Below, one piece after another: positions 12,507 to 62,109 of a stretch of DNA of 64,000 bases (position 1 is its first letter; each line of letters starts with the position of its first letter). Under the pieces are notes generated by a model. That model saw only the letters and a program-made list of their open reading frames with translations. It ran no database searches and was not told where the DNA came from. The DNA comes from an uncultured Pseudomonadales bacterium (GTDB lineage: Bacteria; Patescibacteriota; Microgenomatia; UBA1400; CAYNMC01): NCBI GenBank assembly GCA_964398365.1, contig CAYNMC010000038.1:25727-89726 (forward strand), written 5' to 3'. The position numbers and the translations under genes are program-made.

Positions 12507-12542
12507 TTAAATTGTTTAATAAAATTTAAAAAAGGAGGGGCT

Positions 12543-28282: not shown

Positions 28283-28286
28283 ATTT
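28259..28286. terminator. 28-bp perfect palindrome shared by the convergent transketolase and ligase 3' ends (possible bidirectional terminator)
   Basis: AAATCTAATGATTCGAATCATTAGATTT is its own reverse complement. It contains both TAG stop codons and encodes KSNDSNH* on both strands. Confidence 0.5.
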
Positions 28287-30050: not shown

Positions 30051-30059
30051 GGGTAGTTA

Positions 30060-31367: not shown

Positions 31368-32011
31368 CTTCCCTGTTAGTTTTCCTTGCCTAAAAATTAC
31401 CCTCTATTGGTAGGGGCTAAAGGATGATATCAATCTGAATAAGTGATAGGAATCCCCGATTTTCTAAGGTGTCGGCGGCACACCCGACTGTGACGATTTA
31501 CAGTCATGTTTTTCCTTTGACTTGCGCCAAAGAGGTAAAAACCCTGTGAGTGGGTAAACCTTTTATCCTTAAGAAAGGAGGTGATCCATCCGCTCCTTCC
31601 AGAACGGATACCTTGTTACGACTTACCGCTGATTACCGAGCTTGCCTTCACCCCGCCTAAAGGGCGGGGCTTCGGGCACTCCCGACTTTCCTCAGTTGAC
31701 GGGCAGTGTGTACAAGGAGCGAGAACGTATTCACCGCGGTCTGCTGACCCGCGATTACTACCAATTCCGCGTTCATGAGGGCGAGTTGCAGCCCTCAATC
31801 CCAACTGAGGGAAGGTTTGATGGGATTAGCTCCGCCTTACGGCTTGGCAACCCATTGTCCTTCCCATTGTAGGATGTGTGTGGCCCTGGGCATAAGCGCC
31901 GTGCTGACTTGACGTCATCCTCTCCTTCCTCCCCGCCAGTTGGCGGAGCAGTTCCCTAAGAACTTCTAACTTAGGGTAAGGGTTGCGCTCGTTACCGCAC
32001 TTAAGCGTACG

Positions 32012-32045
<34 letters not shown>

Positions 32046-32965
32046 GCTGTCCTAGTGTCCTTGCGGAAGCCTCGGTTTCCCGAAGATGTCACTAGGATGT
32101 CAAACCCAGGTAAGGTTCATCGCTTCGTATCGAATTGAACCACATGCTCCACTGGTTGTGCGCTCCCCCGTCAATTCTTTTGAGTTTTAGCCTTGCGGCC
32201 GTAGTTCCCAGGCGGCCTACTTAACGCGTTAGCTTACGTCACCCCCGCGAAAAACGGAGACAACTAGTAGGCATCGTTTACGGCTAAGACTACAGGGGTC
32301 TCTAATCCCTTTTGCTCCCTTAGCTTTCGTTCATCAGCGTCTGAAGGACCTAGGTGCCTGCCTTCGCTCTCGGTGTTCTTCCCAATCTCAACGGATTTCA
32401 CTCCTCCACTGGGAATTCCAGCACCTCCGATCCAACACAAGTTTTTCAGTATCAATCGCCTTTCTCCGATGAAGTCGGAGGCTTTAACGACTGACTTGAA
32501 AAACCGCCTACGAGACTCTTTACGCCCAGTAAATCCGGATAACGCTTGCACCCTACGTCTTACCGCAGCTGCTGGCACGTAGTTAGCGGGTGCTTATTCC
32601 CCCGATGGTCTCCCATCGGGGAAAAGTGGTTTACAACCCGAAGGCCTTCATCCCACACGCGGCGTCGCGGCGTCAGAGTTGCCTCCATTGCGCACGATTC
32701 CCGGTTGCTGCCACCCGTAGGTGTATGGGCCGTGTCTCAGTCCCATTCTGCCCGTATCCCCTCTCAGGGCGGGTACCCGTCGTAGCCTTGGTAGGCCATT
32801 ACCCTACCAACAAGCTGATGGGCCGCAGGCTCATCCCTCGGCGGACAGTTACGTCCTTTTCCCGATTAAATCGGGATTATGCGGTATTACCCCGCCTTTC
32901 GGCGAGCTATTCCCCACCAAGGGGTAGATTCCTACGTGTTACTCAGCCGTTCGCGGCTAGCGCAA

Positions 32966-33389
32966 CTCACAACACTCAACTACCAACTTTCAACTTTTTA
33001 GAAAAACCGCCAAGTTGATTTACAACGCTTTCACAAAGTTCAATTGACTCGTCAAATTCTTTAGAGTTAATCAGCTTTTCACTAAAAGCAACATCTAACG
33101 CGGATGCTGTTTCATTTGCTGAACCCATCGAATTTTCGAGATATCTGTTGAAATCTTTGTCTGAAGTTTTTGCTGAACCTTCTGCTATATTTAAGACTAT
33201 CGATAAAGAACTTCTTCTTATCTGATCTTTTAGATAATAGAAGTCTTTTGGAAATTTGGCAGACAATCTTACTATTTTTCGATGTAGATTCTTTGAGTCC
33301 TTATATACCTTAAAGTTCAAAAAACGGAAACTTATAATCTAATCATAGCAGAAAGTTGTGTGTTGTTTGTTGGAGGCTGAATGTTGTGA
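32966..33389 (-). other. intervening sequence (IVS) inside 16S rRNA helix 6 / V1, with basal stem
   Basis: After GCATGCAAGTGGAGCGAGCGTAGC the rRNA leaves the conserved core. CTCACAACA (33389..33381) pairs with TGTTGTGAG (32974..32966), after which the core resumes GCGAACGGCTGAGTAACACG. A second pairing, CAACTTTC / GAAAGTTG, lies inside. Confidence 0.8.
32976..33320 (-). CDS. four-helix-bundle protein (23S rRNA IVS protein / S23p / Avd-like family) encoded within the 16S IVS
   Basis: 114 aa. KFPKDFYYLKDQIRRSSLSIVLNIAEGSAKTSDKDFNRYLENSMGSANE matches the family core (QlrRAa.Si..NIAEG...s.kef..fl..A.GS..E). Same strand as the rRNA. Confidence 0.8.
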   Translation of the reverse strand: MNFKVYKDSKNLHRKIVRLSAKFPKDFYYLKDQIRRSSLSIVLNIAEGSAKTSDKDFNRYLENSMGSANETASALDVAFSEKLINSKEFDESIELCESVVNQLGGFSKKLKVGS

Positions 33390-49378: not shown

Positions 49379-49687
49379 TCACTTCGTTCGACTCTTTTTG
49401 GGTGTTAACTTACTCTGCTCTTTAAGCTGCCTTAATTTCCACATAAAAAGGCGCGCCGGGGATTTGACGCTTGCAGCGTCTTTGACAAAATTGCGAGCTG
49501 CCTCCAATAAACCCCTTGGGGTCTCTTTGGCTAGTTTTATGTATAAAGCTTTATGTTTTAGGTCATCCAGTTCTTTTGCCAATTCATAGCCATATTTTTG
49601 AAATTCACGCGAAATGTATTTATCTTTGTCAGAGTTGAATTTTTTTAATATATCCCCAACTTTTGAGAAACCCAGTTGTTTATCCAT
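49379..49687 (-). CDS. hypothetical basic protein
   Basis: 102 aa, helical/charged. Preferred over the overlapping plus-strand ORF 49314..49589 because it is co-directional with pth and has a more protein-like composition. Confidence 0.5.
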   Translation of the reverse strand: MDKQLGFSKVGDILKKFNSDKDKYISREFQKYGYELAKELDDLKHKALYIKLAKETPRGLLEAARNFVKDAASVKSPARLFMWKLRQLKEQSKLTPKKSRTK

Positions 49688-49712: not shown

Positions 49713-50198
49713 TTATTTTTTAATCCTCAAGACTAAATCTTTAACTGCCTTTTTGATTACATTAGTAATTACCAGTAACTCTTCGTCGTCAAAGTCTTGA
49801 AGCACATACTCCTCGCCTTTTATTCGTTTTTCTTTATCTGCTATTCTGTTATCTACTCCTATCCTTAAATGCCAAAAATCTTTAGTGCCCAAAGCCTCAT
49901 AAATAGAGTTTAGGCCCTTGTGCTCCTTGGGGCCTACTCCAAACTGAATTTTATATTTGCCCAATTTTATATCAAGATCATCATGAACTACATATAAGTC
50001 ACTAGGCACCAGGGAGTAGATACTAGTGAATTTTCTAACTGCATCGCCAGAGGAGTTCATGAATACGCCTGTTTTTTTGACTATTAGATCTTTTGGGAGC
50101 TTGGTGGAAAGAAGCTTATCAACAAAAAGGTAGCCAACATTGTGGCGGGTTTTTTTATATTCCTCACCGGGATTCCCAAGACCGATAACAAGCTTCAT
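49713..50198 (-). CDS. pth: peptidyl-tRNA hydrolase
   Basis: MKLVIGLGNPGEEYKKTRHNVGY, the canonical Pth N-terminus with catalytic His. 161 aa. Confidence 0.93.
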   Translation of the reverse strand: MKLVIGLGNPGEEYKKTRHNVGYLFVDKLLSTKLPKDLIVKKTGVFMNSSGDAVRKFTSIYSLVPSDLYVVHDDLDIKLGKYKIQFGVGPKEHKGLNSIYEALGTKDFWHLRIGVDNRIADKEKRIKGEEYVLQDFDDEELLVITNVIKKAVKDLVLRIKK

Positions 50199-50227: not shown

Positions 50228-50845
50228 TCATGAAACAAACGGGACGAAGTTGAAGATGCCGTGCTCAGACTTTCTTATGCCTTTTTTTGTCTTTTTATAT
50301 TTTGTCATTGTCTTGTCATAACCTTCCCCTACCGGCGCAACCAAAACTCCTCCCATTTTAAGTTGCTCAAACAAACTCGCTGGAACTTTTTTGGAAACTC
50401 CGGCTGTAATCAAAATTGCATCAAAAGGTGCCTTGCTTTTCCAGCCCAGCTCTCCTCTTCCCCACTTAACTTTTACATTTTTGTAACCCAGTTTCTTTAA
50501 TTTTTCTCTAGCTTGTTTGGCAAGCTGACTAATTATCTCTATCGTAAAAACTCTCTTTGCCAAAATAGATAAGATAGCAGCCTGATAGCCCGACCCCGTT
50601 CCAATTTCCAAAACCTTCTCCCCCCCTTTAAGACCCAGAAGGTGTGTCATAATGGCAACTGTATAAGGCTGAGACATTGTCTGGCCAAAACCAATTGGCA
50701 CCGGCCGGTCATCATAAGAAAGATGACGAAATTTAGAAGGGGCAAATTTATCTCGCGGAACCAAAAGCATTGCTGAGAGGACTTTGGGAGAATTTAAAGC
50801 ATACTTTGTTTTAATCTCCCAAACCATCCTCTCTGCGTCTGTCAT
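50228..50845 (-). CDS. pcm: protein-L-isoaspartate O-methyltransferase
   Basis: GFGQTMSQPYTVAIM and VLEIGTGSGYQAAILS. Confidence 0.9.
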   Translation of the reverse strand: MTDAERMVWEIKTKYALNSPKVLSAMLLVPRDKFAPSKFRHLSYDDRPVPIGFGQTMSQPYTVAIMTHLLGLKGGEKVLEIGTGSGYQAAILSILAKRVFTIEIISQLAKQAREKLKKLGYKNVKVKWGRGELGWKSKAPFDAILITAGVSKKVPASLFEQLKMGGVLVAPVGEGYDKTMTKYKKTKKGIRKSEHGIFNFVPFVS

Positions 50846-50853
50846 GGTTGAAC

Positions 50854-51183
50854 CTATAACTTTCCCAATAATTGCCTTACAAACTTACCAACAATAGGAA
50901 CCTCCCACTCTTCACCCTGCCAGGCTTTGTAAATAAGAAAAAGCCAAAGAATAAAACCTACAATCCCTACCAAAGGCACCAGAGCAACAAGAATTATTGT
51001 AAAGCCCATAATCATCTGTAAAACAAACAAACCCAAAAATACCACTATTGACTGCATTGCATGGAAACGCACATAGGAATCTTTTTCCAAAATTAGAAAA
51101 ATCACTCCTGTGATAGGACCCAAAACATAAGATAGTGCTGCCGCCGTGTTTTTACTAAGTCCAGTTCCAGAACTAACTGGCAT
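50854..51183 (-). CDS. small multi-TM membrane protein, DUF4870/Tic20-like, copy 2
   Basis: AAALSYVLGPITGVIFLILEKDSYVRFHAMQS ... KAWQGEEWEVPIVGKF. Paralogue of 12543..12869. Confidence 0.7.
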   Translation of the reverse strand: MPVSSGTGLSKNTAAALSYVLGPITGVIFLILEKDSYVRFHAMQSIVVFLGLFVLQMIMGFTIILVALVPLVGIVGFILWLFLIYKAWQGEEWEVPIVGKFVRQLLGKL

Positions 51184-51264
51184 AATTTCTCACCTCCTTA
51201 TACTCCCTTATATACATAATTTCAATTAGACTGGATTTTGTCAAGAAAAAATGGCAATCAAAGA

Positions 51265-52563
51265 CTAATCAAAAAGGTGTCCTTGGTCGAAAGGTACGGA
51301 CACATGTTCTTCCTCGCGCCAAATCTTGACAACTCCATAAACTCCATCATATCCCGGTAAAATTTGAATATCTCCCAAGCGAACTTTTTTGATTCCCTCA
51401 ACCACTTTTGGATAAGTAGCCTTTTCCAATTCAGACAAGGCAGTTTCAAGTAAGACCTTATATTCGCTCCCAAAATTATTAACAAGTTGGTCATAAATTT
51501 GCAGAACTTTTTGACTTGTTTCACCACTGGCTAAAGACTCGGAAATAATCTCCAAAAGAGGAACCATCATTACATATGGCGCACGATTTTGGTCTTTTGA
51601 TTTTATCCAACGAACCCCAAACTCATCAATAAAACTTTCTGTCTCAATTTCTTTTTTGGCAAGATGCTCCACCCTGCTCATAACACCCACTGTCAAGGGT
51701 TTCCCACAAACCGGGCAGGTGATTCCTCTCTTGCGCGTATCGTTTGGGGAATAAACTATTTTGCAATTTCTATGACCAGTGTAGTGGTATTTCCCTTCCT
51801 CAGGATAAAACTCTATGGTATGAGAAATACCTTGAGGATTCATAAGAGAGTTCCTTAAGTTTTCAAAACTTAAGCTTTCTAGATTAAAAATGGTCATCTC
51901 GCGCCCCAGTTTTGCGGGTGAGTGCGCATCAGAGAAAGAAACGATATTCTTACTATTAAGCTCTCCAATTCTCCAATTCATAGCCGGATCACTTGAAAGG
52001 CCAGTTTCTATTGCAAAAATATTTTCGGCAAACTCACCAAAACACTCCCTGATACTCTCAAAACCAGAAATACTGCCATATAAAGAAAACCATGGAGTCC
52101 AAGCATGGGCCGGGATAATAATTATTCTTTTGTCAATATTCCAAAGGACTTCTGCTACCACTTTTACTGACATACCCAGAATCGGTCTTCCGTCACTTAG
52201 TAAATTAACTCCCTTTTTTGTTAATTCTTTATTTACCTTTTCGATAACTTCAAAATTGGGGGCAAAGACAAGATAGTGTATTCTGTGGCTTTTACCTGAT
52301 TGTAAATAGACAGAACTAATCTCAGTTGAAAGAATAAATCCCGGCGAATTTTTATCCGAACCTTTCAGCCTGTAGATTCCCTCCTCATTCTCTTTGAGAT
52401 TTGCTTCAAGCTCGCGAAGCCATAAAGGATGCGTCCAATCTCCTGTTGCCACAAGGTCAATACCCTTCTTTACCGCCCAGTTGGCGATAGTCGAAACATT
52501 CATCTGCGAAGAAACAGCTCTGGAAAAGCGCGAATGCAAATGAAGATCAGCAGTAACCTTCAT
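51265..52563 (-). CDS. PHP-domain endonuclease Q-like protein, copy 2
   Basis: ADLHLHSRFSRA, ATGDWTHPLW and ITCPVCGKPLTVGVMSRVEHL. 38/60 identical to copy 1 over the first 60 residues (manual count). Confidence 0.7.
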   Translation of the reverse strand: MKVTADLHLHSRFSRAVSSQMNVSTIANWAVKKGIDLVATGDWTHPLWLRELEANLKENEEGIYRLKGSDKNSPGFILSTEISSVYLQSGKSHRIHYLVFAPNFEVIEKVNKELTKKGVNLLSDGRPILGMSVKVVAEVLWNIDKRIIIIPAHAWTPWFSLYGSISGFESIRECFGEFAENIFAIETGLSSDPAMNWRIGELNSKNIVSFSDAHSPAKLGREMTIFNLESLSFENLRNSLMNPQGISHTIEFYPEEGKYHYTGHRNCKIVYSPNDTRKRGITCPVCGKPLTVGVMSRVEHLAKKEIETESFIDEFGVRWIKSKDQNRAPYVMMVPLLEIISESLASGETSQKVLQIYDQLVNNFGSEYKVLLETALSELEKATYPKVVEGIKKVRLGDIQILPGYDGVYGVVKIWREEEHVSVPFDQGHLFD

Positions 52564-52584
52564 GGTGAAGGTATTTTAACCCAC

Positions 52585-53559
52585 CTAGCTAAACTCGGCA
52601 ACCAGAAAGAGAAGATACATCACAAGAAGTACTCCCGCCTCCCACCTATCAAGCCGGTGTTTGCTTCTTATAAAAAACCAAAAAGTGATAAAAATGATGA
52701 TAAACGCGACTGCCGCCAACGAATATTTCTCAACTGTCATCAAGCTAACCGGGGATATGACGGAAACTGTCCCCAGAATAAGAGTAGAGTTGGCAATTAT
52801 TGATCCAAAAAGATTGCCCAAAAACATACTGGGTTCTTTATTCCCAAGTGATTTGAATGAGAAAGCAAGTTCAGGAAGAGTCGTGCCCATCGACAAAATA
52901 ACAAGACCCACAATAAAAACTGGTACACCGGCCAGAGAAGCCAAAAAGGTACCCACTCGCACAATTACATCGGCTGAAAAAAGCAAAAGAGCAATACCGA
53001 TAAAAAGACTGCCCAAATCCTTTGATAAGACTGTTTCAGTATGAACGAACTCCCGCAAAAAACGATGCACAAATTTCTGATCCAGATTTTCCTGAGCGAT
53101 TTGCACAAACCGGTTTTTAAAAAAGCTTGACGCATAGCCAGCATAGACAGCCAAAAGGATAAGGCCATCAACTCTTGAAAGTTCTCTGTCTATTATTAGA
53201 AGAAGAGGTAAAAGTCCTGCCAAAAAGGCAAAAAAAAGATCTTTCTTGATTGCCTCGCCTTTTATATTTACCTTACCGAGAATAAAGGCACTTAGCCCTG
53301 CCACAAGTGAAATATTGGCAATATTAGCTCCCAAAACATTACCCAAGCTTAAGTTCGGACTACCCTCTAGAGCCGAGGTAATTCCTACAAAAAATTCCGG
53401 AAGCGAAGTTCCAACCGCCAAAATTATTGCAGACAAAACAAAAACCTTAGCTCCAACTTTTTTACTTATCCTTCTTATGGCAAGAATTACAAGGTCTGAA
53501 GATTTAATCAGAAAAAAGGAAAAAATAAAAAGTGATAAAAAAAGGGTAATGATTATCAT
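52585..53559 (-). CDS. Ca2+/cation antiporter (CaCA family, YrbG-like)
   Basis: Two alpha-repeats, AVGTSLPEFFVGITSA and SMGTTLPELAFSF. About 10 TM segments. Confidence 0.85.
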   Translation of the reverse strand: MIIITLFLSLFIFSFFLIKSSDLVILAIRRISKKVGAKVFVLSAIILAVGTSLPEFFVGITSALEGSPNLSLGNVLGANIANISLVAGLSAFILGKVNIKGEAIKKDLFFAFLAGLLPLLLIIDRELSRVDGLILLAVYAGYASSFFKNRFVQIAQENLDQKFVHRFLREFVHTETVLSKDLGSLFIGIALLLFSADVIVRVGTFLASLAGVPVFIVGLVILSMGTTLPELAFSFKSLGNKEPSMFLGNLFGSIIANSTLILGTVSVISPVSLMTVEKYSLAAVAFIIIFITFWFFIRSKHRLDRWEAGVLLVMYLLFLVAEFS

Positions 53560-53630
53560 TGTCTAAACTTTTTTAAAAAAACTTTAGAGAATTCTTTGAT
53601 AATAAACATTATAAACAATATCCTAACACA

Positions 53631-55349
53631 TTAAACTCCCTGAAGTTTAAAAAGTTTTTTAATCTCATCTAAAGTTGTTGCCTCTTCCGCCGATTTATCA
53701 TCACGAAAACGAATTAGCCGAGGAAATCTCAGAGCAAAACCCGTCGTATGTTTGGGACTAACTGTCAACTCATCGGCTGCAATTTCTACAACTACCTTTG
53801 GAGCTACCCAAAAATCAGGATAAAGGTCCTTATGAACTTCGTAGTTTTTCGGTTTTTCTTTAATTTGAATTTTAAGCAAACGTTTCTTCAACTCCCTAAA
53901 CTGCTCATCCGTTAGGCCAGTACCAACCTTTGTAATAGTTCTTATCATCTCTTTATCCAAGATACCAGCCAAAAACTGCCCAACTCCAAAGCTGGCTCTT
54001 TTACCCTTACCCAAGGTATAACCCATAATGATTGCATCTATTGTGTCTGCCAATTTTCCCTGAGCTTGTTCCTGTTCCTTCATCTTTACCCAGCGCCAAC
54101 CTGTTCTTCCGGGAACATAAGTTGAGTTGGCTTTTTTTACCATTACTCCTTCCAAGCCCTCAGCCACTTTTTGTTTATAGTATTTGTTTATTTCCTCGGG
54201 GTTGGAAGTTATCGCTTTTTCATCTACCACAAAAAGCTGGTTGGGTATAAAAAGTTTTTCCAAAATTTTTCTTCTTTTCAGATATGGAAGATTCATAAGA
54301 TTTTTTCCATCTTTATAGATAATGTCAAACACCTGAAACCTAAGAGGTATTTCTTTGGACTTTTCTTCAATTTTATATTTGCGCCTTCTTTGCATTGTCG
54401 TCTGAAAGTCGGCAAGTCGCTTCATTTCAGGATCCATTCCCACGGCTTCACTATCCAAAATTACCTCTTTGGCTTTTAAGTATTTTTTAATCTCATAAAT
54501 TTCGGGAAACATCCCCGCCACATCGTTTAAGTTCCTAGTAAAAGCCTTTATAAAATTTTTCTTTCCTCTTTTAAAATGAATAAGAACCCTCAAGCCATCA
54601 AACTTAGGCTCAACAACCACCTCGCCCATTTTTTTAATCATCTCTTGAGGACTTTTGAGTCTTTGAGCAAGCATGGGAAGAACTGGAATCCCAATTACTG
54701 GTTTGACATTTTTTGCGGCACTTGCGGCTCCACGCCTTTTTACCTCCTTTGCCAAAAGTCCAACATCTGGAACAACTTGATAAGCCTCCTCCAAGGTGGG
54801 CTTTAAACTTTTATCCCCCCTCTCCATCCAACTCAAGGCATCCAAAATTGTTTTTTCTGAAAAACCCAGCCTTAACCTTCCTACTGGGATTCTTGAAACA
54901 AAGCGGCAACTTAGCGGATCAAGTTCGGATAGGATTTGAGCCATTTTGCTGATTTTTCTTTCTTGACTTCCTTCACCTTGGTCTTCGGCAATTTCAAAAA
55001 GGCAGTTATAAATCCTCTCAACCGAATAGTCTTTGGTTTCTAAGTTTGACTTCTGGGCCAAATCCGCAGCAACATCACCCAAATCTCCGAGTTTTTTATA
55101 GATAGTTTTAACTTCTTTAACATCTTTTTTGAATGCTTTTGCCAAAACCAAAATCATCATCCTTTCTGCCAAATTAAAAACTATACCCTTGAAACTGGGA
55201 GCAAGAGTGCCCAAAGATAAATAAACTATCTTGTCTATTTCATCAGTCTCACTCCTAGAAAGAAGTTCGGCCAATATTTTGGTGATTTCTATCCTTGAGG
55301 AAGTTCTCTCCAGTTTATTAAGATAAAAAGCAAACTCCCTAAATTTCAT
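53631..55349 (-). CDS. ATP-dependent DNA ligase, archaeal/eukaryal Lig1-type, copy 2
   Basis: 572 aa. EPKFDGLRVLIH, LDSEAVGM, EGVMVK, WVKMK and LRFPRLIRFRDDK. 33/60 identical to copy 1 over the first 60 residues (manual count). Confidence 0.9.
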   Translation of the reverse strand: MKFREFAFYLNKLERTSSRIEITKILAELLSRSETDEIDKIVYLSLGTLAPSFKGIVFNLAERMMILVLAKAFKKDVKEVKTIYKKLGDLGDVAADLAQKSNLETKDYSVERIYNCLFEIAEDQGEGSQERKISKMAQILSELDPLSCRFVSRIPVGRLRLGFSEKTILDALSWMERGDKSLKPTLEEAYQVVPDVGLLAKEVKRRGAASAAKNVKPVIGIPVLPMLAQRLKSPQEMIKKMGEVVVEPKFDGLRVLIHFKRGKKNFIKAFTRNLNDVAGMFPEIYEIKKYLKAKEVILDSEAVGMDPEMKRLADFQTTMQRRRKYKIEEKSKEIPLRFQVFDIIYKDGKNLMNLPYLKRRKILEKLFIPNQLFVVDEKAITSNPEEINKYYKQKVAEGLEGVMVKKANSTYVPGRTGWRWVKMKEQEQAQGKLADTIDAIIMGYTLGKGKRASFGVGQFLAGILDKEMIRTITKVGTGLTDEQFRELKKRLLKIQIKEKPKNYEVHKDLYPDFWVAPKVVVEIAADELTVSPKHTTGFALRFPRLIRFRDDKSAEEATTLDEIKKLFKLQGV

Positions 55350-55356
55350 GAGTATA

Positions 55357-55560
55357 TTATACTCTTTGGGTGGCTAAGTAAGAAGAAAAGAAAAGATAGG
55401 CAAAAACAACCACTCCAATAAAAGCCAGTCCAAAAGCAATATTTATTAGACCATTCCATTCTTGGTGGAAAATCTTATTAAGCCCCTCTCCAACTAAAGT
55501 CAAGCCAAAAAGGGCTGGCAAAACCAATATCATATACAAAAATTGCGGGTCTTTTGCCAT
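55357..55560 (-). CDS. small two-TM membrane protein (hypothetical)
   Basis: 67 aa with two hydrophobic helices. Gaps of 4 nt and 7 nt to Fic and the ligase. Confidence 0.5.
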   Translation of the reverse strand: MAKDPQFLYMILVLPALFGLTLVGEGLNKIFHQEWNGLINIAFGLAFIGVVVFAYLFFSSYLATQRV

Positions 55561-55564
55561 AATT

Positions 55565-56632
55565 TTACTCCTGAGTTGCTAGAACATAGCGCGATCCTTT
55601 CGTACTTCCACGTTTCTTGACAATACCTTTTGCCATTAAATCCTTCAAGTCGCGCAAAATTGTATCCTCTGAAATCATAGGCAAAACTCCTGCTAAATCC
55701 TTCATTATTGCCCAACCCTTTTCCGACAAAAACTCCACAAGCTTTACCTGTCTTTCAGAAAGAGCAATCTGTGCACCTATGCGCACTTTTAGATGACTGT
55801 CAACAGATAATGTTTTAACCTTGTCTTTAATTTTGGTAAGCTCTATGGCTAAAACCTCTGAGAAATACTCTAGCCAAGGTGTTAAGTCTCTATCGGCTAT
55901 ATTCGGAGATTGACTGTCGACTTTAAAAAAGGCTTCATAGTAAGAACTTAAATCCTTATCAAAGTGCTCCTCAAGGGAAAAAAACCTTTTAATATCATAA
56001 CCCTCTTTTAAAAGAATAAGAACTGCAAAAGCTCTAGCAGTTCTACCGTTTCCCTCCACAAAAGGGTGAATGGCAACTAGTATGTAGTGGGCAATTCCAG
56101 CCCTTAAAACTGGGTGAATCTCTTTTCCTTCTGGTGAATTTAGCCAAGCTAGAAACTCTTCAAGTAAAAATGGTACCTCGACAAAAGGCGGTGGAGTAAA
56201 AATGACCCTACCCGTTCCCTCCTCTCTTATAAGGACTTGAGTGTTTCTTATTTTGCCTGCCTTTTCTTCGGGAACAATTTTATAAACGACAACAGCGTGA
56301 ATCTCTGTCAACATGTTTATGTCATACCAACCACGCTTGTTCACAAGATCATCCAAAAGCGCAACCACATTCCTGTAATTTATTACCTCTTGAATATCCC
56401 GCTGCCTGGCTGTAATTTCTTGCCCCTCAAGAACTTGCTTTGTCTGCGAAAAAGTTAAATCATTGCCTTCAATGTGAGTTCCGTGATAGACAGTCCTTGC
56501 TATCGCATCAGAAACAAAGTCTTTCTCGTAGGATGGAATAAGGGGTGCATTTTCAATTACCTCTTTAGCCGCTTCAATTTGACAAATGCTTTTAAGAATC
56601 TTGTTGGTAATACTAAAGCGAGGAGAATACAT
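55565..56632 (-). CDS. Fic-family protein (Fic_N + Fic + winged-helix), copy 2
   Basis: HPFVEGNGRTARA. 36/60 identical to copy 1 over the first 60 residues (manual count). C-terminal ILRDLKDLMAKGIVKKRGSTKGSRYVL. Confidence 0.88.
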   Translation of the reverse strand: MYSPRFSITNKILKSICQIEAAKEVIENAPLIPSYEKDFVSDAIARTVYHGTHIEGNDLTFSQTKQVLEGQEITARQRDIQEVINYRNVVALLDDLVNKRGWYDINMLTEIHAVVVYKIVPEEKAGKIRNTQVLIREEGTGRVIFTPPPFVEVPFLLEEFLAWLNSPEGKEIHPVLRAGIAHYILVAIHPFVEGNGRTARAFAVLILLKEGYDIKRFFSLEEHFDKDLSSYYEAFFKVDSQSPNIADRDLTPWLEYFSEVLAIELTKIKDKVKTLSVDSHLKVRIGAQIALSERQVKLVEFLSEKGWAIMKDLAGVLPMISEDTILRDLKDLMAKGIVKKRGSTKGSRYVLATQE

Positions 56633-56673: not shown

Positions 56674-57516
56674 CTAACCCAGGCGTGCTAAGGTTTTTGG
56701 AACGTCATCTGCCAAGTCGTCTGCGTTAAAGTAAACTCCAACACTTTCTGCCAAATTTTCTGCTGTTTTTTTAATAATATAGGCTGCGGCTTGAGCTGCT
56801 AAAAAAGGCTCATTTTTGGCCAAAAGTGCAACAGTTAAGCCGGCATGAACGTCTCCTGTGCCGCCTTTGGTTAGTCCAGCGTTGCCACCGGAGATTTCAA
56901 CAACTTCCTGAGGTGAGGCGACTTTGGTTATTTCTCCCTTAAGGCAAATGATACAACTGTATTCTTTAGAAGCCTCGGCAATATCCATTTTGCCAAATAG
57001 CATAGAGTATTCTTTTTTGTTGGGTGTAAGAATTGAATTTTTTGGAATCCACTCGGGGTACATTGTTTGCAAACTTCCCGCATCAATCACCCACTTCTTA
57101 TAAGGATGTCTGAGAAGAAGTCTCTTGGTAATCAAGCGGGACATTCGACAGGCTTCGTCGCAGTAAGATAAATCACCACCTTTATGGCTTTCTTCAGTCT
57201 TGTAACGCATAAAGCCTGGGCCCAAAAGAGCCGCGTCGGATTTTTGAATATATTTATCAATCTCCTTCCAAGGAACCCAGATAAACGAGCCAAGTTTTGC
57301 CTTAATATAATTCGCAACTTTTCCAACTGATGGTTCGGGTGAAGAGAAAAAAACCATGTCCACAATTCTTGAGGCTACTTTTAATGATAAAAGTGGGGCG
57401 CCGTGGAAAAGCTTGGAGCCACCAATAATTGTCACTTGACCATTGTCTTCACCATCTGACGCAGGGGGTGGCTTGTATAAATCTTTGAGGATTTTGGGGT
57501 CGAATTTTGTGGTCAT
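56674..57516 (-). CDS. nnrD: ADP/ATP-dependent NAD(P)H-hydrate dehydratase (YjeF C-terminal type)
   Basis: GQVTIIGGSKLFHGAPLL and GNAGLTKGGTGDVHAGLTVALLA. Confidence 0.8.
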   Translation of the reverse strand: MTTKFDPKILKDLYKPPPASDGEDNGQVTIIGGSKLFHGAPLLSLKVASRIVDMVFFSSPEPSVGKVANYIKAKLGSFIWVPWKEIDKYIQKSDAALLGPGFMRYKTEESHKGGDLSYCDEACRMSRLITKRLLLRHPYKKWVIDAGSLQTMYPEWIPKNSILTPNKKEYSMLFGKMDIAEASKEYSCIICLKGEITKVASPQEVVEISGGNAGLTKGGTGDVHAGLTVALLAKNEPFLAAQAAAYIIKKTAENLAESVGVYFNADDLADDVPKTLARLG

Positions 57517-57546
57517 TTGATGTATTGTATACTTAATTTAATACTT

Positions 57547-57801
57547 ATGGCAAAAAAGTCCAAAAGACAACTTCATGAGGAAATAATAAGGCAAATGCTT
57601 CAGCTTGCAACCAGCGGATTTGGATTTGTGTCGGCTTTGGCTTGGAATGATTTTATAAAAGGGGCAATGGATAAATTTCTTAGCCCCATCGTTGGAAACA
57701 AATCAGAAGTTCTATCAATGTTTTTATACGCCGTGATTGTTACTGCTCTGGCAGTTCTGGTAACTTATAATCTGACAAAATTAATTAAAAGAAGATACTA
57801 A
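57547..57801 (+). CDS. small membrane protein (hypothetical)
   Basis: Start set at ATG 57547 (MAKKSKRQL). Amphipathic N-terminus and one C-terminal TM segment. Confidence 0.5.
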   Translation: MAKKSKRQLHEEIIRQMLQLATSGFGFVSALAWNDFIKGAMDKFLSPIVGNKSEVLSMFLYAVIVTALAVLVTYNLTKLIKRRY

Positions 57802-57810
57802 TTTTCCTTT

Positions 57811-58878
57811 TTATAGAATAATTTTCCTAACCTCGGCAAATTTTTTGACATATTGTAACTCTGTGGTTGTAATTACTGTCTGGTGGTGTTTGATTACCTT
57901 CATAACCACCTCTCTGTGAGCTTTATCTAATTCTGAAAAAATATCATCTAAAAGAAGTGTGGGTTTGTAACCGGTCTGCCTTTCAATATATTCAAGCTCC
58001 CGCAGTTTGAGCCACAAAACTGCCATTCTCTGCTCGCCCCGGGAACCAAAACGAGAAAGGTCTCTCTCAATTTTGAATTTTGAATTTTGAATTTTGAACT
58101 GAATATCATCTCTGTGGGGACCAACTAGAGTGGTTGCTGCTGCAACCTCTTCTGCCGCGTATTGCTCAAGACGGGAATGCGAAATTGCAGATTTATCATA
58201 AACGAGTGTGAATCTACAATTGTCAAAATTTGGTTCTTGGTTTACAAAATTAATAAATTCTTCCCTTTTGCGACTTATAAAATCTCCATTTTTTATTAAG
58301 AGTTGGTCCCAGAAAATAAGCTGTGAGCGCGATAGACCCTCCTCGCGGATACGATAAAGAAGCCTGTTGCGCTGACGTAGACCTTTTTCGTAAGAAAGGT
58401 TGCTGCGGCGATATTCGCGATCACTTTGAGATAAAACAGCATCGAGAAAACTTCTTCTTAAACTTGGTGATTGGGTCACCAATCCCAAGTCCCATGGCCC
58501 GAAGATAACCGTCTTGAAGCGTCCAGCAAAATCTATAAGTCTTTTATTTACCCCGTTTACCAAAAGTTTTTTGCGAACAAGATGTTTTTTAGGGGAAAGA
58601 TGAGCTTCTCTACCTAAATTCATTTCACCTCTCGTCAATACTACCTCTAATATCTCCTCTGTTTTTGCTTTTACGCGGGCAATTTCAGCATTTTCACTAA
58701 TCATTTCCTCTTCAATCTTGGCTCTAAAACTTTTGCCGCTTGCAACTAAATTTATTGCCTCAAGAATGTTTGTTTTGCCGCTGGCGTTAGGGCCAATTAT
58801 CAAAGTTACTTTTGGTGAAAACTCAATTAGCTTTTCTTTGAAATTTCTAAAGTCTGTAAGTTTGATTTTTTGGATCAT
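57811..58878 (-). CDS. recF: DNA replication/repair protein RecF
   Basis: KLTDFRNF, Walker A GPNASGKTN, GPHRDD, SRGEQR signature and LLLDDIFSELD Walker B. Start set at ATG 58878 (MIQKIKL); the 30 upstream codons of the track ORF look like the tail of a decayed gene. Confidence 0.9.
   Translation of the reverse strand: MIQKIKLTDFRNFKEKLIEFSPKVTLIIGPNASGKTNILEAINLVASGKSFRAKIEEEMISENAEIARVKAKTEEILEVVLTRGEMNLGREAHLSPKKHLVRKKLLVNGVNKRLIDFAGRFKTVIFGPWDLGLVTQSPSLRRSFLDAVLSQSDREYRRSNLSYEKGLRQRNRLLYRIREEGLSRSQLIFWDQLLIKNGDFISRKREEFINFVNQEPNFDNCRFTLVYDKSAISHSRLEQYAAEEVAAATTLVGPHRDDIQFKIQNSKFKIERDLSRFGSRGEQRMAVLWLKLRELEYIERQTGYKPTLLLDDIFSELDKAHREVVMKVIKHHQTVITTTELQYVKKFAEVRKIIL
58069..58098. repeat. 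heptanucleotide tandem repeat (AATTTTG x4 plus 2 nt) inside recF
   Basis: Read directly from the sequence. It encodes FKIQNSKFKI between the GPHRDD and SRGEQR motifs. Confidence 0.9.
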
Positions 58879-59204
58879 AATCTTCCAGAGCACTTTTCCA
58901 TAATTTTCTCGAATATGGCTAACTCTTTGATATTCCTTATTGCTAAGGTAACCGTTTCTGCAAGTCAACCAAAGGCTATTTTCAAAAATCTTCTGAATTC
59001 ATTTTGATTATTTCTTGCATGACCTTTGACAATCTTAAGAGGCACAGACAAAACGGCATATCTTAATTGAGAAGTCAATCCAAAAAGCTCATCTAGGGGA
59101 AATTTATCGGAAAGTTTATAAACACTCCACGCCAGCTTGTCCGCTATTTCCCAAGCGATCAGTTTTTTATAACCTGTTTTGTACAGTATCTTGTCACCTG
59201 TCAC
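58879..59204 (-). pseudogene. decayed four-helix-bundle (23S rRNA IVS protein / Avd-like) gene between mutM and recF
   Basis: YKKLIAWEIADKLAWSVYKLSDKFPLDELFGLTSQLRYAVLSVPLKIVKGHARNNQNEFRRFLKIAFG stops prematurely at 58965. The expected C-terminal segment (GYLSNKEYQRVSHIRENYGKVLWKI) continues in the recF frame. Possible GTG start at 59204. Confidence 0.6.
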
Positions 59205-60060
59205 TTGTCTTTTGTCTCTGACAATTCGGGCAAAAGTAGGTGCCGCGGCCACCCAACATTATTTTTATAAACTTAGCTTTTTTACACCTAGAACAAAACT
59301 TGCCCTCCTTACCATAAGCTAAAAAATAATTTTGATAATTACCCTCACCTCCATCTGGGGTAACAAAAGCCAGCTCACTTGCCCCGCCTCTTTTGATACC
59401 TTCTTTTAAAACTCTAATAATTGAATTGTAAAGAAGTTTTACTTCAGATTCTTTTAGAGAGTTTGCAGGACGAGTGGGATTGATACTTGCAAGCCACAGC
59501 GCATCATTGGCATAGATATTACCCACCCCACCCATCTTGGACTGATCCATAATTACTATTTTTACAGCACTTTTACTTGATTTTAAGATTTTAGAAAAAA
59601 GCTCCAAGGTTAAGCCATTTAGGGGTTCTGGTCCAAGTTTTTTAATAAAATCAATGTCAGTGACACTCTCGGTTTCAACTATCTTAATCCAGCCAAAGCG
59701 GCGAACGTCGTTATAGAAAAGTTTGCCATCGCGATCAAGATGGAATATTAAATGAGTATGGCGGCCACCTAAGCCACCAATAACTTTTTTTGATAGGTCC
59801 GGAGGATCTTTTAAGTTTGGGCCACGATAGATAAACTGGCCGGTAAGTTTAATATGAGCAACAAACGAATAGCTATTATCAAGATCAACTGATAATACTT
59901 TGCCAAAACGGCGGACCTTTTTGACTTTACCTCCTACGAGTTTATTAACATCTCCTGAAACAATTTTTGGAGTGTGAACACTCACTTTCTGGATCTTATG
60001 ACCCCTTAAATATTTATCAAGTTGACCCCTGATTGACTCTACTTCGGGTAGTTCAGGCAT
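59194..60060 (-). CDS. mutM: formamidopyrimidine-DNA glycosylase (Fpg/MutM)
   Basis: MPELPEVE N-terminus (catalytic Pro2/Glu3), H2TH region and C-terminal zinc finger CSRC...CPNCQ. Confidence 0.92.
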   Translation of the reverse strand: MPELPEVESIRGQLDKYLRGHKIQKVSVHTPKIVSGDVNKLVGGKVKKVRRFGKVLSVDLDNSYSFVAHIKLTGQFIYRGPNLKDPPDLSKKVIGGLGGRHTHLIFHLDRDGKLFYNDVRRFGWIKIVETESVTDIDFIKKLGPEPLNGLTLELFSKILKSSKSAVKIVIMDQSKMGGVGNIYANDALWLASINPTRPANSLKESEVKLLYNSIIRVLKEGIKRGGASELAFVTPDGGEGNYQNYFLAYGKEGKFCSRCKKAKFIKIMLGGRGTYFCPNCQRQKTSDR

Positions 60061-60064
60061 ATGT

Positions 60065-61177
60065 TTAATTTACAACTTTCAAATTATCAATAAAACTGGT
60101 CATTTGTTTTCTAAACCTCTCCTTTGAGAATTTTTGTGCGCAGGCTAATAAATCCTTTTTACAAAACTTTTTCTTCTCAAATTTTTTAATTGCTTTTACG
60201 AGAGAATCAACTGTTAGCTCATCAAAAAAAACACCGGTTTTATCAGTTACTGTCTCGGTATAGCCGCCGCCACGGAAAGCTATTACCGGCGTACCCGCTG
60301 CCATTGCCTCAACTGGAGTAATACCAAAATCTTCATCCTTTTGGGCAATAATAAAAGCCTTGGCATTTTGGTAAAGAGAGATTAATTTTTCGTCGTTCAC
60401 TCTTCCTAAAAATTCTATCTCTTTGCCCGCTAATTTTTCCAGCTCCGGCCTTAAAATTCCGTCACCATAGATTTTTAAATTGACTTTTGCCTTACGGCAG
60501 GCCTTGATGATTAGATCGAAGTTCTTGGCAGAAACTAATCTGCCACCAGACAGATAGTATGTAGTATTTTGAATATTGTATTTAGAGTTCTTGGGTTGAA
60601 ATTTCTCAACCTCAACGGGCGGGTAGACAACTTTATCGACTTTGCGGCGGTAGAATTTTTCGACCCGCCTGGCGACATTTAGCGAATTTGCAATAATAAA
60701 ATCTGGCTTTTGGGCTTTAGTAAAATCGTACATACGTATAAAGTGATTAACTATTAGGGCATAGGCTTTGATAATCCCTGAATACCATTTACCCTCCCAA
60801 TTTCTTGATGTGTCATAACCATATAAATACCTCGGCGGAGTATGAATGTAGCAAATCTCCAGCTTTGCGTTGGGCATACCTTTTGTTATCGCCCAACTGG
60901 CAGAGGTAATGACCAAATCATAATTTGAGAAATCAAAACTGGCCCAAATAAACGGAATCAGAAAACGCAGGGGCGAAATTAATCTATCACAAAAAGGCAA
61001 ATACGAAAACCAACTCTGGATTACTTTTTTATCTTTAAATTCCCTCCAGCAAGGAGAGTTCTTTTTGAAAAAAATCGCATAAATTGGAGCTTTGGGATAG
61101 ATCTCTGAAAGAGCCTTTAAGACCCTCTCGGCTCCTCCAAAATCACCAAGATAATCATGGACTAGAGCAATTTTCAT
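60065..61177 (-). CDS. family-4 glycosyltransferase (GT-B)
   Basis: EDFGITPVEAMAAGTPVIAFRGGG (E-x7-E). Confidence 0.8.
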   Translation of the reverse strand: MKIALVHDYLGDFGGAERVLKALSEIYPKAPIYAIFFKKNSPCWREFKDKKVIQSWFSYLPFCDRLISPLRFLIPFIWASFDFSNYDLVITSASWAITKGMPNAKLEICYIHTPPRYLYGYDTSRNWEGKWYSGIIKAYALIVNHFIRMYDFTKAQKPDFIIANSLNVARRVEKFYRRKVDKVVYPPVEVEKFQPKNSKYNIQNTTYYLSGGRLVSAKNFDLIIKACRKAKVNLKIYGDGILRPELEKLAGKEIEFLGRVNDEKLISLYQNAKAFIIAQKDEDFGITPVEAMAAGTPVIAFRGGGYTETVTDKTGVFFDELTVDSLVKAIKKFEKKKFCKKDLLACAQKFSKERFRKQMTSFIDNLKVVN

Positions 61178-61191
61178 GGCGTCCGCGGGCG

Positions 61192-62109
61192 TTAAAACAG
61201 TTGCATCTGTTTTTCCTTCTCTATCTTCTTTCCGACTTCCTGAACCCTTTTTGCCAAAGTTTTAAAACCAATTTTTGCAAAAACTTTCAAAACTTTCTCG
61301 CTTTTAATATCCCAAACTGCAGCCTCATCAAGATGAAAAGTGATAGGTGCGTCCGTGACTATGGTCGCAAGTTTTTTGGAAAGCCCAGCCTCTTCGGCTC
61401 CCTGAGCTAGTTTTTGAGATATTTTGGAAGGTATATCTCCCAAATGTTTATAGACACCCTCAAGGCTGCCAAATTGTTTGATTAAAGAAACTGCTGTTTT
61501 GGGACCAATTCCCAAAACCCCTTTGTAATTATCAGAAGCATCTCCCACCAAGGCCTTATAGTCAACTATCTGTGAAGGTTTAACTCCCATTTTTTCGATA
61601 ACCTCCTTTACTCCAAAAAGTTTCGCGTCCGTCAAACCCCGAATGGGCATATAAACTCTTATTCTATCGGTCACAAGCTGCAAGATATCCCTGTCTCCTG
61701 TGACTATCACAACTTCATCTACCTCAAAGTTTTTCTTGTCGTTATCAGTCGCTTGTTTTGCAATCGTTCCTATAATATCATCAGCCTCATAACCTTCTTG
61801 TCTGAAAATTGGAATTCCAATTGCCCCCAAGACCCGATAGACAAGATCAAACTGCTCGGATAGTTCTGAAGACATTCTGGGCCGCTGCGCCTGATAACCA
61901 ACATATTCCGCGTGTCGAAAAGTTGGTTTGGGGGTATCAAAAGCGCAAACTATGTGAGTTGGTGCTAGGTCCTGAATAATCTTCAGAAGCATTAAGGTAA
62001 AACCATAAACAGCATTGATTTGTTTACCATCCTTGGAAGTCAAAGGGGGCAGGGCATGATATGCCCGATGTAAAATCGCATTACCATCAATTAAAACGAG
62101 TTTGGTCAT
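61192..62109 (-). CDS. stand-alone 5'-3' exonuclease / flap endonuclease (Pol I N-terminal domain homologue)
   Basis: LVLIDGNAILHRAYHA, VTGDRDILQL and DNYKGVLGIGPKTA (H3TH). 305 aa with no polymerase domain. Confidence 0.88.
   Translation of the reverse strand: MTKLVLIDGNAILHRAYHALPPLTSKDGKQINAVYGFTLMLLKIIQDLAPTHIVCAFDTPKPTFRHAEYVGYQAQRPRMSSELSEQFDLVYRVLGAIGIPIFRQEGYEADDIIGTIAKQATDNDKKNFEVDEVVIVTGDRDILQLVTDRIRVYMPIRGLTDAKLFGVKEVIEKMGVKPSQIVDYKALVGDASDNYKGVLGIGPKTAVSLIKQFGSLEGVYKHLGDIPSKISQKLAQGAEEAGLSKKLATIVTDAPITFHLDEAAVWDIKSEKVLKVFAKIGFKTLAKRVQEVGKKIEKEKQMQLF

Follow-up and report, generated by a model that had tools for sequence, protein, structure and literature searches.

A run of six genes on the minus strand of this DNA (positions 50854-56632 of the window, by which we mean the whole stretch of 64,000 nucleotides that was analysed) raises the question of why a Fic protein, a membrane peptide, a DNA ligase, a CaCA antiporter, an endonuclease Q (EndoQ) homologue and a DUF4870 protein should stand side by side. 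The first-pass annotation had described these genes with spacers of 4, 7, 71, 21 and 81 nt and with pcm and pth after them, and had proposed an incision-ligation repair module with membrane components for tethering or ion control. The layout proved exact when the open reading frames were rechecked, and Pfam identified both pcm and pth, two members of the backbone that come after the block. The features of the region are the following:

55565..56632, minus strand: Fic-wHTH protein, 355 aa (PF02661, 3.8e-19, and HTH_DeoR; Pfam)
55357..55560, minus strand: two-helix (2-TM) membrane peptide, 67 aa, conserved in ~25 related loci
53631..55349, minus strand: ATP-dependent DNA ligase, 572 aa (PF04675, PF01068, PF04679; TIGR00574)
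53560..53630, minus strand: ligase-CaCA spacer, 71 nt (compared with L042, L044 and L041)
52585..53559, minus strand: CaCA cation/Ca2+ antiporter, YrbG/NCX-type, 324 aa (PF01699, 4.6e-47, in two stretches)
51265..52563, minus strand: endonuclease Q homologue (PHP protein), 432 aa (matches to 5ZB8 and 7K30)
51184..51264, minus strand: EndoQ-DUF4870 spacer, 81 nt, with a promoter-like consensus match
50854..51183, minus strand: DUF4870/HOTT (Tic20-like) small membrane protein, 109 aa (PF09685)
50228-50845, minus strand: pcm, protein-L-isoaspartate O-methyltransferase (PF01135, 2.1e-58)
49713-50198, minus strand: pth, peptidyl-tRNA hydrolase (PF01195, 1.2e-40)
56674..62109, minus strand: upstream backbone with NnrD, RecF, (remnant ORF), Fpg/MutM, GT4 and a stand-alone 5'-3' exonuclease of FEN type (Pfam)

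In our opinion, the block is likely to be a compacted piece of an ancestral Microgenomates gene order, composed of three units, and the other copy of these genes in the window is likely to come from a second organism. The units are inherited separately: Fic-(peptide)-ligase, CaCA (P-type ATPase-CaCA in relatives) and EndoQ-DUF4870. They would have been brought together by gene loss in a conserved part of the chromosome of ultra-small bacteria, and the block is unlikely to be a dedicated cut-and-seal machine.

This reading comes from a comparison with 152 fetched related loci, genome counts being taken from 151 genomes of the order. A Microgenomates-wide backbone runs 5'-3' exonuclease, GT4, Fpg, RecF, NnrD, Fic, (peptide), ligase, [P-type ATPase, CaCA], [glycosyltransferases], EndoQ, (DUF4870), pth, and this order is kept in 75 EndoQ loci and 20 EndoQ-less loci; the gene order from NnrD to the exonuclease upstream of the block is also found in relatives. 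Repair genes are frequent along this backbone (5'-3' exonuclease, Fpg, RecF, ligase and EndoQ). In the closest relatives, L042 and L044, whose Fic, peptide, ligase, CaCA, DUF4870 and pcm proteins are 56-72% identical to those of the block, the order is Fic, peptide, ligase, a 180-190-aa ORF, a P-type cation ATPase of ~830 aa (Pfam), CaCA, EndoQ, DUF4870, pcm, pth. The stretch from ligase to EndoQ has the same order in L041, which is with these two among the nearest, Woesebacteria-like relatives, and the three loci share the DUF4870-pcm-pth order with the block. The P-type ATPase is missing from the block locus, and the 71-nt spacer between ligase and CaCA is probably the deletion scar of the ORF and the ATPase. 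The contiguity of the block would be due to this loss of ~3 kb in the Woesebacteria-like lineage.

All six genes may be on one transcript, the spacers being short and no convincing terminator having been found between the block genes. The 81-nt spacer before DUF4870 contains a strong AAGGAGGTGA ribosome-binding site and a promoter-like TTGACA-17-AATTAT with an upstream TG, which is a consensus match alone, the count of such sites in the region not being above that of shuffled controls; an internal transcription start in this spacer is possible.

In the first unit, Fic and the ligase are neighbours in every one of 71 loci. The Fic protein of the block presents the canonical HPFVEGNGRTAR motif, an N-terminal inhibitory-helix Glu (IEGN) and the SoFic/CccR-type architecture, with FICD, 8UQU and 7XUX among its PDB matches. 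It resembles SoFic (Shewanella oneidensis, 3EQX/3ZCN) and CccR (Yersinia pseudotuberculosis, 7XUX) in its HxFx(D/E)GNGRxxR signature, its inhibitory Glu helix and its C-terminal winged HTH, and the PADLOC SoFic model matches it over the whole length (residues 12-350, 1.8e-46). However, its score with the NCBIfam SoFic equivalog is only 59 bits for a cut-off of 550, and, unlike SoFic and CccR, it is fixed beside a ligase gene, often followed by the 2-TM peptide. This peptide, which has no family match in Pfam, NCBIfam or PADLOC, carries the motif DPQFLYMxLxLPxLFGLTLxGEGLNK; its HMM gave 19 matches in 18 distinct loci, plus 7 in family f9. It always lies directly after Fic and on the Fic strand, even in family f9, where Fic and the ligase are divergent and the peptide is found on the far side of Fic. 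It is a facultative downstream partner of Fic.

The ligase is of the Lig1 type, with DNA-binding, adenylation and OB domains and a TIGR00574 score of 398 bits (cut-off 218). It differs from archaeal and eukaryotic Lig1 in being bacterial, seemingly as a full replacement of NAD-dependent LigA, and in being always paired with a Fic-wHTH gene. A profile search for the NAD-ligase domain PF01653 gave no match in the 151 genomes of the order, the same search being positive in 11 of 14 known genomes used as control, and therefore the block ligase is the general and sole DNA ligase type found in the order.

The nuclease has no Pfam match, and the first-pass annotation had called it EndoQ-like. It is a genuine EndoQ homologue: residues 2-417 align with PfuEndoQ (5ZB8, E = 1.7e-51; 7K30, 1e-50), and the equivalents of all six catalytic metal ligands H8, H10, E76, H84, H139 and D193 are kept (PMC5961232). 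It shares the PHP, Zn-binding and C-terminal helical domains with the known enzymes of Pyrococcus furiosus and Thermococcus kodakarensis (5ZB8, 7K30-7K33) and with the bacterial EndoQ of Bacillus pumilus, and it keeps the lesion-pocket residues H139, T142, E167, G169, L170 and D193 of PfuEndoQ, whereas T and F stand in the place of L168 and N191 of the pocket. Its Zn site is H-C-C-C, the first ligand being His and not Cys as in known EndoQ, and its score against NCBIfam TIGR00375 is 184 bits, under the cut-off of 327. As in EndoQ, a short C-terminal sliding-clamp-binding motif is predicted; the terminus, QGHLF, resembles a beta-clamp-binding motif of the bacterial QxxLF type, which is present in most bacterial EndoQ homologues, in contrast to the archaeal PIP box QRTLLQYI.

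Could the block then be a dedicated incision-ligation operon, in which EndoQ nicks, the adjacent specialised ligase seals, Fic regulates and co-expression is selected? We think that this is unlikely, even if the synteny on which such a module depends does hold in relatives. In 57 of 68 Microgenomates EndoQ loci the ligase precedes EndoQ on the same strand. The two genes abut in five loci (L045, L051, L054, L069 and L090, the gap being -32 to 57 nt), and in eight further loci, several of which are Levybacteria records, a single short ORF separates the two. This class-wide order could reflect selection for co-expression and not inertia; the short spacers of the block and the place of the ligase as the last step of the published EndoQ pathway (PMC4858679) point the same way. 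Against it, most relatives have 1-9 kb of unrelated genes between ligase and EndoQ, and in 24 of 58 loci some of the intervening genes are on the opposite strand; families f1, f8, f12 and f13 have lost the link, and the genes are never reunited there; and no ligase was found near EndoQ outside the Microgenomates among the loci compared. Moreover, the ligase is near-universal (148/151 genomes) and EndoQ is patchy (41/151), and religation of an EndoQ nick would merely restore the lesion. What stands of the proposed module is a real EndoQ in conserved synteny with a ligase that is general and not dedicated; given the split into three units, the link between incision and ligation is at the level of the neighbourhood only. 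Incision plus ligation as a complete repair was also considered and discarded: the lesion would remain, and in the published model strand displacement and a flap nuclease are required before the ligase acts last (PMC4858679).

The membrane components might instead serve the nuclease, with CaCA setting local Ca2+ or Mn2+ for EndoQ, and DUF4870 and/or the 2-TM peptide anchoring repair proteins. PfuEndoQ can indeed use Mn2+, Mg2+ and Ca2+, but its active-site metals are Zn2+ and tightly bound (PMC5961232). CaCA, which has two Na_Ca_ex repeats, each with a GT(S/T)LPE motif as in YrbG/NCX_Mj-type antiporters, and a TIGR00367 score of 160 bits (under the cut-off of 180), abuts EndoQ at 6-33 nt in L005, L010, L011, L014, L017 and the block. 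Its constant partner, however, is a PMCA/SERCA-like P-type ATPase directly before it in relatives, with or without EndoQ; the pair follows the ligase in the EndoQ-less families f6, f15 and f19, and the f1 organism in the bin has EndoQ without CaCA. Ion control of EndoQ by CaCA is therefore unsupported. The peptide goes with Fic and not with EndoQ, and EndoQ has a clamp-binding-like tail and no membrane segment. Among the accessory membrane genes of the block, DUF4870 alone tracks EndoQ: 33 of 151 genomes have a strong homologue, and 30 of these also carry EndoQ; DUF4870 directly follows EndoQ in 26 of 72 loci and stands no more than four genes away in 35; it occurs in none of the 20 EndoQ-less backbone loci; and the two genes were relocated jointly in family f1. 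The co-loss counts include kin and are not independent, and joint absence may stem from one deletion that removed both neighbours. The position after EndoQ is filled by an unrelated membrane protein of ~150 aa in 13 Microgenomates loci, several of which are Levybacteria records, and this is in favour of a membrane role there. The DUF4870 protein matches PF09685 barely over the Pfam cut-off (27.8 bits against 25) and has several membrane helices in ~110 aa, like the HOTT family of MamF-like/Tic20-related small membrane proteins (PMC11628618), but it has no magnetosome context and is co-inherited with a cytoplasmic DNA nuclease. Of the annotated tie between membrane genes and EndoQ, only the DUF4870 part survives, and we find the tether or ion-control explanation quite improbable as a whole.

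An anti-phage defence or toxin-antitoxin island, with a SoFic-type AMPylase, a nuclease and a ligase, is very improbable in spite of the PADLOC match of Fic, as PADLOC had no match for the other five block proteins, no mobility genes flank the block, and the Fic-ligase pair, unlike patchy defence genes, is vertically inherited at a constant chromosomal site in all genomes examined.

The first half of the window holds a second set of four of these families, as two separate pairs that were confirmed to lie 15.4 kb apart:

11172-12869, plus strand: EndoQ1 and DUF4870_1, most likely the relocated pair of a family-f1 organism
28263-31115, minus strand: Fic1-Lig1, just downstream of the 16S gene and tRNA-Ile, in the family-f1 arrangement
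31574..33022, minus strand: 16S rRNA gene (Rfam)

The identity to the second set is 54% for EndoQ1, 44% for DUF4870_1, 45% for Lig1 and 54% for Fic1. The left half of the window has its orthologous counterpart in a genome of the same family (G005): EndoQ1 and DUF4870_1 are 60% and 68% identical to its syntenic locus L018 (HrcA ... EndoQ, DUF4870, PEGA-SH3 ... UbiA), and its contig C37 carries the 16S 3' part, Fic, peptide and ligase, with Fic and ligase 70% and 67% identical to Fic1 and Lig1. The right half duplicates backbone also present on contig C11 of the bin. The two sets are unlikely to be paralogues within a single genome, and the first most likely belongs to a different, family-f1 organism. 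Contig C38 is probably chimeric at or near the 16S gene, with organism A on the left and organism B on the right (window 31-42 kb), a reading drawn from gene content and composition alone. Tetranucleotide PC2 shifts at ~56-58 kb of C38, a second partial 16S gene (77% identical) stands at the end of contig C14, several tRNA species are duplicated in the bin, and the bin has four EndoQ genes versus one in each of the 40 other EndoQ-positive genomes of the order. That the block itself is an assembly artefact, its six genes being contiguous in no real genome, has this probable chimera elsewhere on the contig in its favour and can hardly be believed, every junction being reproduced in independent genomes (Fic-peptide-ligase in L042-L044, ligase-CaCA-EndoQ in L043 and L052, EndoQ-DUF4870-pcm in L042), the closest relatives being common to all block proteins and the composition being uniform over 68-108 kb of C38.

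With the block as a compacted piece of ancestral gene order, we think that its parts would work as follows. The sole ligase would join Okazaki fragments and seal every repair patch, and Fic-wHTH, in either orientation, would most likely be a DNA-binding regulator or an AMP-transferase for ligase expression or activity, with the 2-TM peptide as a co-transcribed accessory. CaCA would be the surviving half of a cation-efflux pair of P-type ATPase and antiporter, with no relation to DNA repair. DUF4870 would have been gained, lost and moved with EndoQ, and here it seems to head its own unit, DUF4870-pcm-pth. EndoQ is predicted to nick 5' of dU, dI or AP sites, probably with its QxxLF tail as a tether to the beta-clamp, and, by analogy with the archaeal model, the patch might be completed by a polymerase together with the general ligase and the 5'-3' exonuclease that is encoded as a stand-alone gene 4.6 kb upstream. 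EndoQ is present in 21 of 27 UDG-negative genomes versus 20 of 124 UDG-positive ones. With no UDG-superfamily, EndoV, family-A polymerase (PolA) or NAD-ligase domain found by profile search in the bin, EndoQ would probably be its main entry point for the repair of deaminated bases.

Six open reading frames on the minus strand make up the block at 50854-56632, and their spacers (4, 7, 71, 21 and 81 nt) are exactly those described by the first-pass annotation. Domain searches identified pcm and then pth downstream of them. The copies of four of the families reported in the first half of the window also exist, with 44-54% identity to the second set. For placing the block in a wider context, 152 loci were compared: 40 around EndoQ genes of the same order, 80 from a scan of species representatives, and 32 around the ligase in genomes that lack EndoQ or belong to family f9. 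One gene order is common to Woese-, Blackburn-, Shapiro-, Gottesman-, Levy-, Davies- and Curtissbacteria. This backbone starts with a 5'-3' exonuclease, GT4, Fpg, RecF, NnrD, Fic, (peptide) and the ligase; it continues with [P-type ATPase, CaCA], [GT2/GT28, often on the opposite strand], EndoQ and (DUF4870); and it ends with (PRTase or pcm), pth, a protein of about 100 aa, a membrane protein and Lgt. Backbone genes are found at 75 of 116 EndoQ loci, and none of these neighbours was found at EndoQ loci outside Microgenomates. Two proteins of the window rank among the most constant members:

49379-49687, minus strand, 102-aa protein with no Pfam family, located beyond pth in almost all Microgenomates loci inspected
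48763-49296, minus strand, 177-aa membrane protein with no Pfam family, likewise beyond pth in almost all of these loci

The recurrence of the gene order in relatives does not make the six genes one contiguous unit. The ligase lies upstream of EndoQ in 57 of the 68 loci with sufficient upstream sequence, at a distance that ranges from -32 to 8733 nt (median about 2 kb), and at least one opposite-strand gene of at least 150 aa stands between them in 24 of 58 loci. The block proteins are all closest to those of two Woesebacteria genomes (L042 and L044) and of locus L041, where the order is Fic, peptide, ligase, an ORF of about 190 aa, P-type ATPase, CaCA, EndoQ, zero or three genes, DUF4870, pcm and pth. 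Since these relatives carry the ~190-aa ORF and the ATPase at that point, the 71-nt spacer between ligase and CaCA in the window probably corresponds to a deletion of about 3 kb; the same compaction is seen in L043, a Blackburnbacteria record, and in L052. In the relatives, three units vary independently rather than co-occurring as a single six-gene operon: Fic-ligase and P-type ATPase-CaCA are retained in genomes without EndoQ; in family f8, CaCA, EndoQ and DUF4870 occur in this order without Fic-ligase; and in family f1 the gene pairs stand apart. Thus, what survives of the proposed minimal incision-ligation module is a conserved neighbourhood and not a dedicated module, and the block is an ordinary compacted piece of an inherited chromosome region. 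A scan for promoter and terminator signals gave no excess over shuffled controls (25 sites versus 19.8 ± 3.5 and 11 versus 8.9 ± 3.3). The sole noteworthy site is in the spacer upstream of DUF4870, where TTGACA-17-AATTAT is accompanied by a strong AAGGAGGTGA site, which makes a separate DUF4870-pcm-pth unit plausible.

The repeated families acquire a different meaning when the origin of the contig is considered. Four EndoQ and three ligase genes are present in the source bin, which comprises 39 contigs (1.01 Mb) with 5.9% contamination; each of the other 40 EndoQ-positive genomes in the order has a single EndoQ gene, and most of them have a single ligase match. Third and fourth copies lie on short contigs of the bin, namely Fic-peptide-ligase on C28, CaCA-EndoQ on C39 and EndoQ on C5. 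The family has one other genome, G005, with which the left half of the window shares both orthology and synteny (67% identity for the ligase, 70% for Fic and 68% for DUF4870); in G005, too, a 16S gene is followed by Fic-ligase. A complete backbone is present in the right half, running from the 5'-3' exonuclease to the 177-aa membrane protein; contig C11 of the bin has this backbone again, with identities of 39-57% and with the block absent. Proteins of G005 are nearer to C11 than to the right half of the window (NnrD 67% vs 41%, GT4 68% vs 46%, RecF 57% vs 44%). Because a supervised tetranucleotide LDA was considered circular for contig C38, which contains the window, unsupervised PCA was used instead: all 11 right-hand windows of C38 fall at PC2 values of 1.9-2.9, only 4 of the 181 windows on other contigs exceed 1.8, and the shift occurs at about 56-58 kb of C38, which is the position of the 16S gene. 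A second partial 16S gene at the end of C14 has only 77% identity, and several tRNA species are duplicated in the bin, which is informative for the join.

We think that C38 probably joins two Microgenomates genomes, in or close to the 16S gene, between 31.4 and 41.5 kb of the window (57-67 kb of the contig). In that case the "two copies" would be the single-copy genes of two organisms, one of family f1 to the left and another to the right. The block lies well inside the right-hand organism, and all of its junctions are also seen in independent genomes. Two other markers were of no use for placing the join: encoded and non-encoded tRNA 3' CCA ends are mixed throughout the bin, and in the comparison of 5' and 3' parts of the 16S gene the G005 contig begins inside 16S, while the identities of 78-85% to other families give no placement. 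Contigs C17 and C18 are also cited with the two-genome observation. The outlier signature of the right half of C38 (PC2 above 1.8) is seen as well in C16 at 72-92 kb and in the first 12 kb of C38, and C16 carries weak paralogues of the window ORFs at 36444-37383 in its interval 80.2-81.0 kb. Two tandem genes of about 750 aa lie at each end of C38, beyond the window (11.7-16.4 and 105.1-109.7 kb); the four share 50-56% identity with one another, consistent with orthologous tandem pairs contributed by two organisms. A public MAG contig is probably chimeric, and other readings of the window as one genome may be affected.

The 432-aa PHP protein of the block has no Pfam match in domain searches, but its residues 2-417 align with residues 2-385 of the 400 of Pyrococcus furiosus EndoQ (5ZB8; E = 1.7e-51), a full-length match over the three domains. 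As an EndoQ homologue it would be predicted to cut 5' of dU, dI or AP sites. The PHP-domain metal ligands of EndoQ are His8, His10, Glu76, His84, His139 and Asp193 (PMC5961232), and all six are identical in the HMMER alignment with 5ZB8 (DLHLHS, TEI, RIHYL, PAHAWT, SDAHSP). In the Zn-binding domain, the four cysteines of EndoQ (Cys249, Cys252, Cys268 and Cys271) correspond to H-C-C-C (GHRNC...CPVC), the first Cys being likewise His in the first-half copy; this is a plausible Zn site judging from the residues, although not the canonical C4. Against NCBIfam TIGR00375 the protein scores 183.8 bits, under the curated cut-off of 326.6 bits, which places it by sequence in a divergent bacterial branch. 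The two copies end in ...DQGHLFD (block) and ...EQMSLF (first half). Tails of QxxLF type occur, by the strict pattern, in 49 of 74 and 24 of 41 homologues, and the QxxLF or QLxLxF end of most bacterial EndoQ homologues looks like a beta-clamp-binding motif. Some EndoQ genes are enlarged in frame by long insertions, which may be inteins or inserted elements (L016, 887 aa; L040, 837 aa; the C39 copy of the bin, 500 aa), and the EndoQ gene of genome G008 is interrupted by stop codons.

In the published model, EndoQ incises 5' of the lesion; strand-displacement synthesis follows, Fen1 removes the flap and a ligase closes the nick, each of these steps taking place on the sliding clamp (PMC4858679). 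With a nuclease and a ligase alone, the lesion would be resealed. A candidate for the flap nuclease would be the stand-alone 5'-3' exonuclease of the same backbone (61192-62109). Domain searches of the bin found no UDG-superfamily, EndoV, family-A polymerase or NAD-ligase domain. Across the order, whose genomes are related, EndoQ is present in 21 of 27 UDG-negative versus 20 of 124 UDG-positive genomes, which fits EndoQ standing in for UDG and suggests that it is the main route of uracil and hypoxanthine repair in genomes without a UDG-superfamily gene.

Of the membrane components of the block, which had been proposed to tether the PHP nuclease or to control it through ions, DUF4870 alone tracks EndoQ. 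CaCA has the features of an antiporter of its family (PF01699, 160 bits in two stretches; GTSLPE and GTTLPE of the GxSxPE signature), and the gene of about 850 aa that precedes it in relatives encodes a cation P-type ATPase. Ion control of EndoQ is not supported, as this pair persists behind the ligase in the EndoQ-less families f6, f15 and f19. Moreover, CaCA and EndoQ are commonly separated by opposite-strand glycosyltransferases, and no CaCA gene for the f1 organism was found in the bin, though EndoQ is present. Tethering through the 2-TM peptide is not supported either, since the peptide accompanies Fic, including inverted Fic, and not EndoQ.

The DUF4870 assignment clears the Pfam gathering cut-off by a small margin (27.8 versus 25 bits). 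The family, also called HOTT, is uncharacterised apart from MamF-like magnetosome proteins (PMC11628618). Strong homologues occur in 33 of 151 genomes of the order, 30 of them EndoQ-positive, and 11 EndoQ-positive genomes have none. DUF4870 follows EndoQ immediately in 26 of 72 loci and lies no more than four genes away in 35 of 72; it was found in 0 of 20 backbone loci without EndoQ. In family f1, both genes moved jointly and are now located between HrcA/VanY and a PEGA-SH3 gene. This co-inheritance is suggestive of a joint function but is not proof, because the genomes share ancestry and two neighbouring genes may be lost in a single deletion. In 13 loci (L047, L049, L051, L054, L056-L058, L060, L064, L074, L077, L083 and L096, several being Levybacteria records) EndoQ is directly followed by another polytopic membrane protein, of about 140-176 aa, ending in ...LFQ(I/V)KSYYK and with no Pfam family. 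Remote homology between this protein and DUF4870 was rejected (hhalign probability 0.3%). It is rather unlikely, in our opinion, that in Microgenomates EndoQ functions as a pair with a small polytopic membrane protein, the two being present, absent or relocated as a cassette, with HOTT/DUF4870 in most lineages and the unrelated protein of about 150 aa in those 13 loci. Were it true, repair of deaminated bases would be tied to the membrane, for example through a nuclease that is localised or gated there, in cells without UDG, EndoV, Pol I and LigA.

Fic and the ligase are constantly associated. The block ligase has the DNA-binding (PF04675, 127 bits), adenylation (PF01068, 174 bits) and OB-fold (PF04679, 75 bits) domains, and with 398 bits against a TIGR00574 cut-off of 218 it is an ATP-dependent ligase of Lig1 type. 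A ligase was found in 148 of 151 genomes of the order, and the NAD-ligase adenylation domain in 0 of 151, the control search being positive in 11 of 14 known genomes; hence it is the general replicative and repair ligase, and LigA seems to have been fully replaced by an archaeal-type ATP ligase in Microgenomates. The ligases of family f9 may contain an insertion, as their match is broken into two parts near residue 265, and in family f13 the match begins only at about residue 78 (loci L140-L152 are cited with these two families).

The Fic protein carries the HxFx(D/E)GNGRxxR motif as HPFVEGNGRTAR, together with PF02661 and a C-terminal HTH, and it matches the PADLOC SoFic profile along its full length (1.8e-46). 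It is thus of SoFic type but not an orthologue of Shewanella oneidensis Fic, scoring 58.9 bits in the NCBIfam SoFic equivalog, below the cut-off of 550. A defence-island reading was discarded, since Fic alone among the block proteins has a PADLOC match. In 71 of 71 loci Fic is found upstream of the ligase at a distance of at most four ORFs, and in family f9 the Fic gene is inverted with respect to the ligase but remains adjacent to it. The 67-aa peptide, which has two hydrophobic helices and matched no known family in domain searches, recurs with the motif DPQFLYMxLxLPxLFGLTLxGEGLNK in about 25 loci, always directly 3' of Fic and on its strand, inverted cases included; therefore, it belongs to Fic and not to the ligase or EndoQ. 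The winged helix and the adjacency in both orientations suggest that Fic may regulate the ligase as its target. A literature search found no publication combining "Fic domain" with "ATP-dependent DNA ligase".

The points that deserve follow-up are the Fic-peptide-ligase unit, the EndoQ-HOTT cassette and the partial complementarity of EndoQ and UDG. In a streamlined genome such as this one, short spacers may mimic an operon, and the contiguity seen here results from deletions within an ancient gene order. An archaeal-type ATP ligase that is always flanked by a Fic-wHTH gene provides a testable point on how Microgenomates maintain their DNA.
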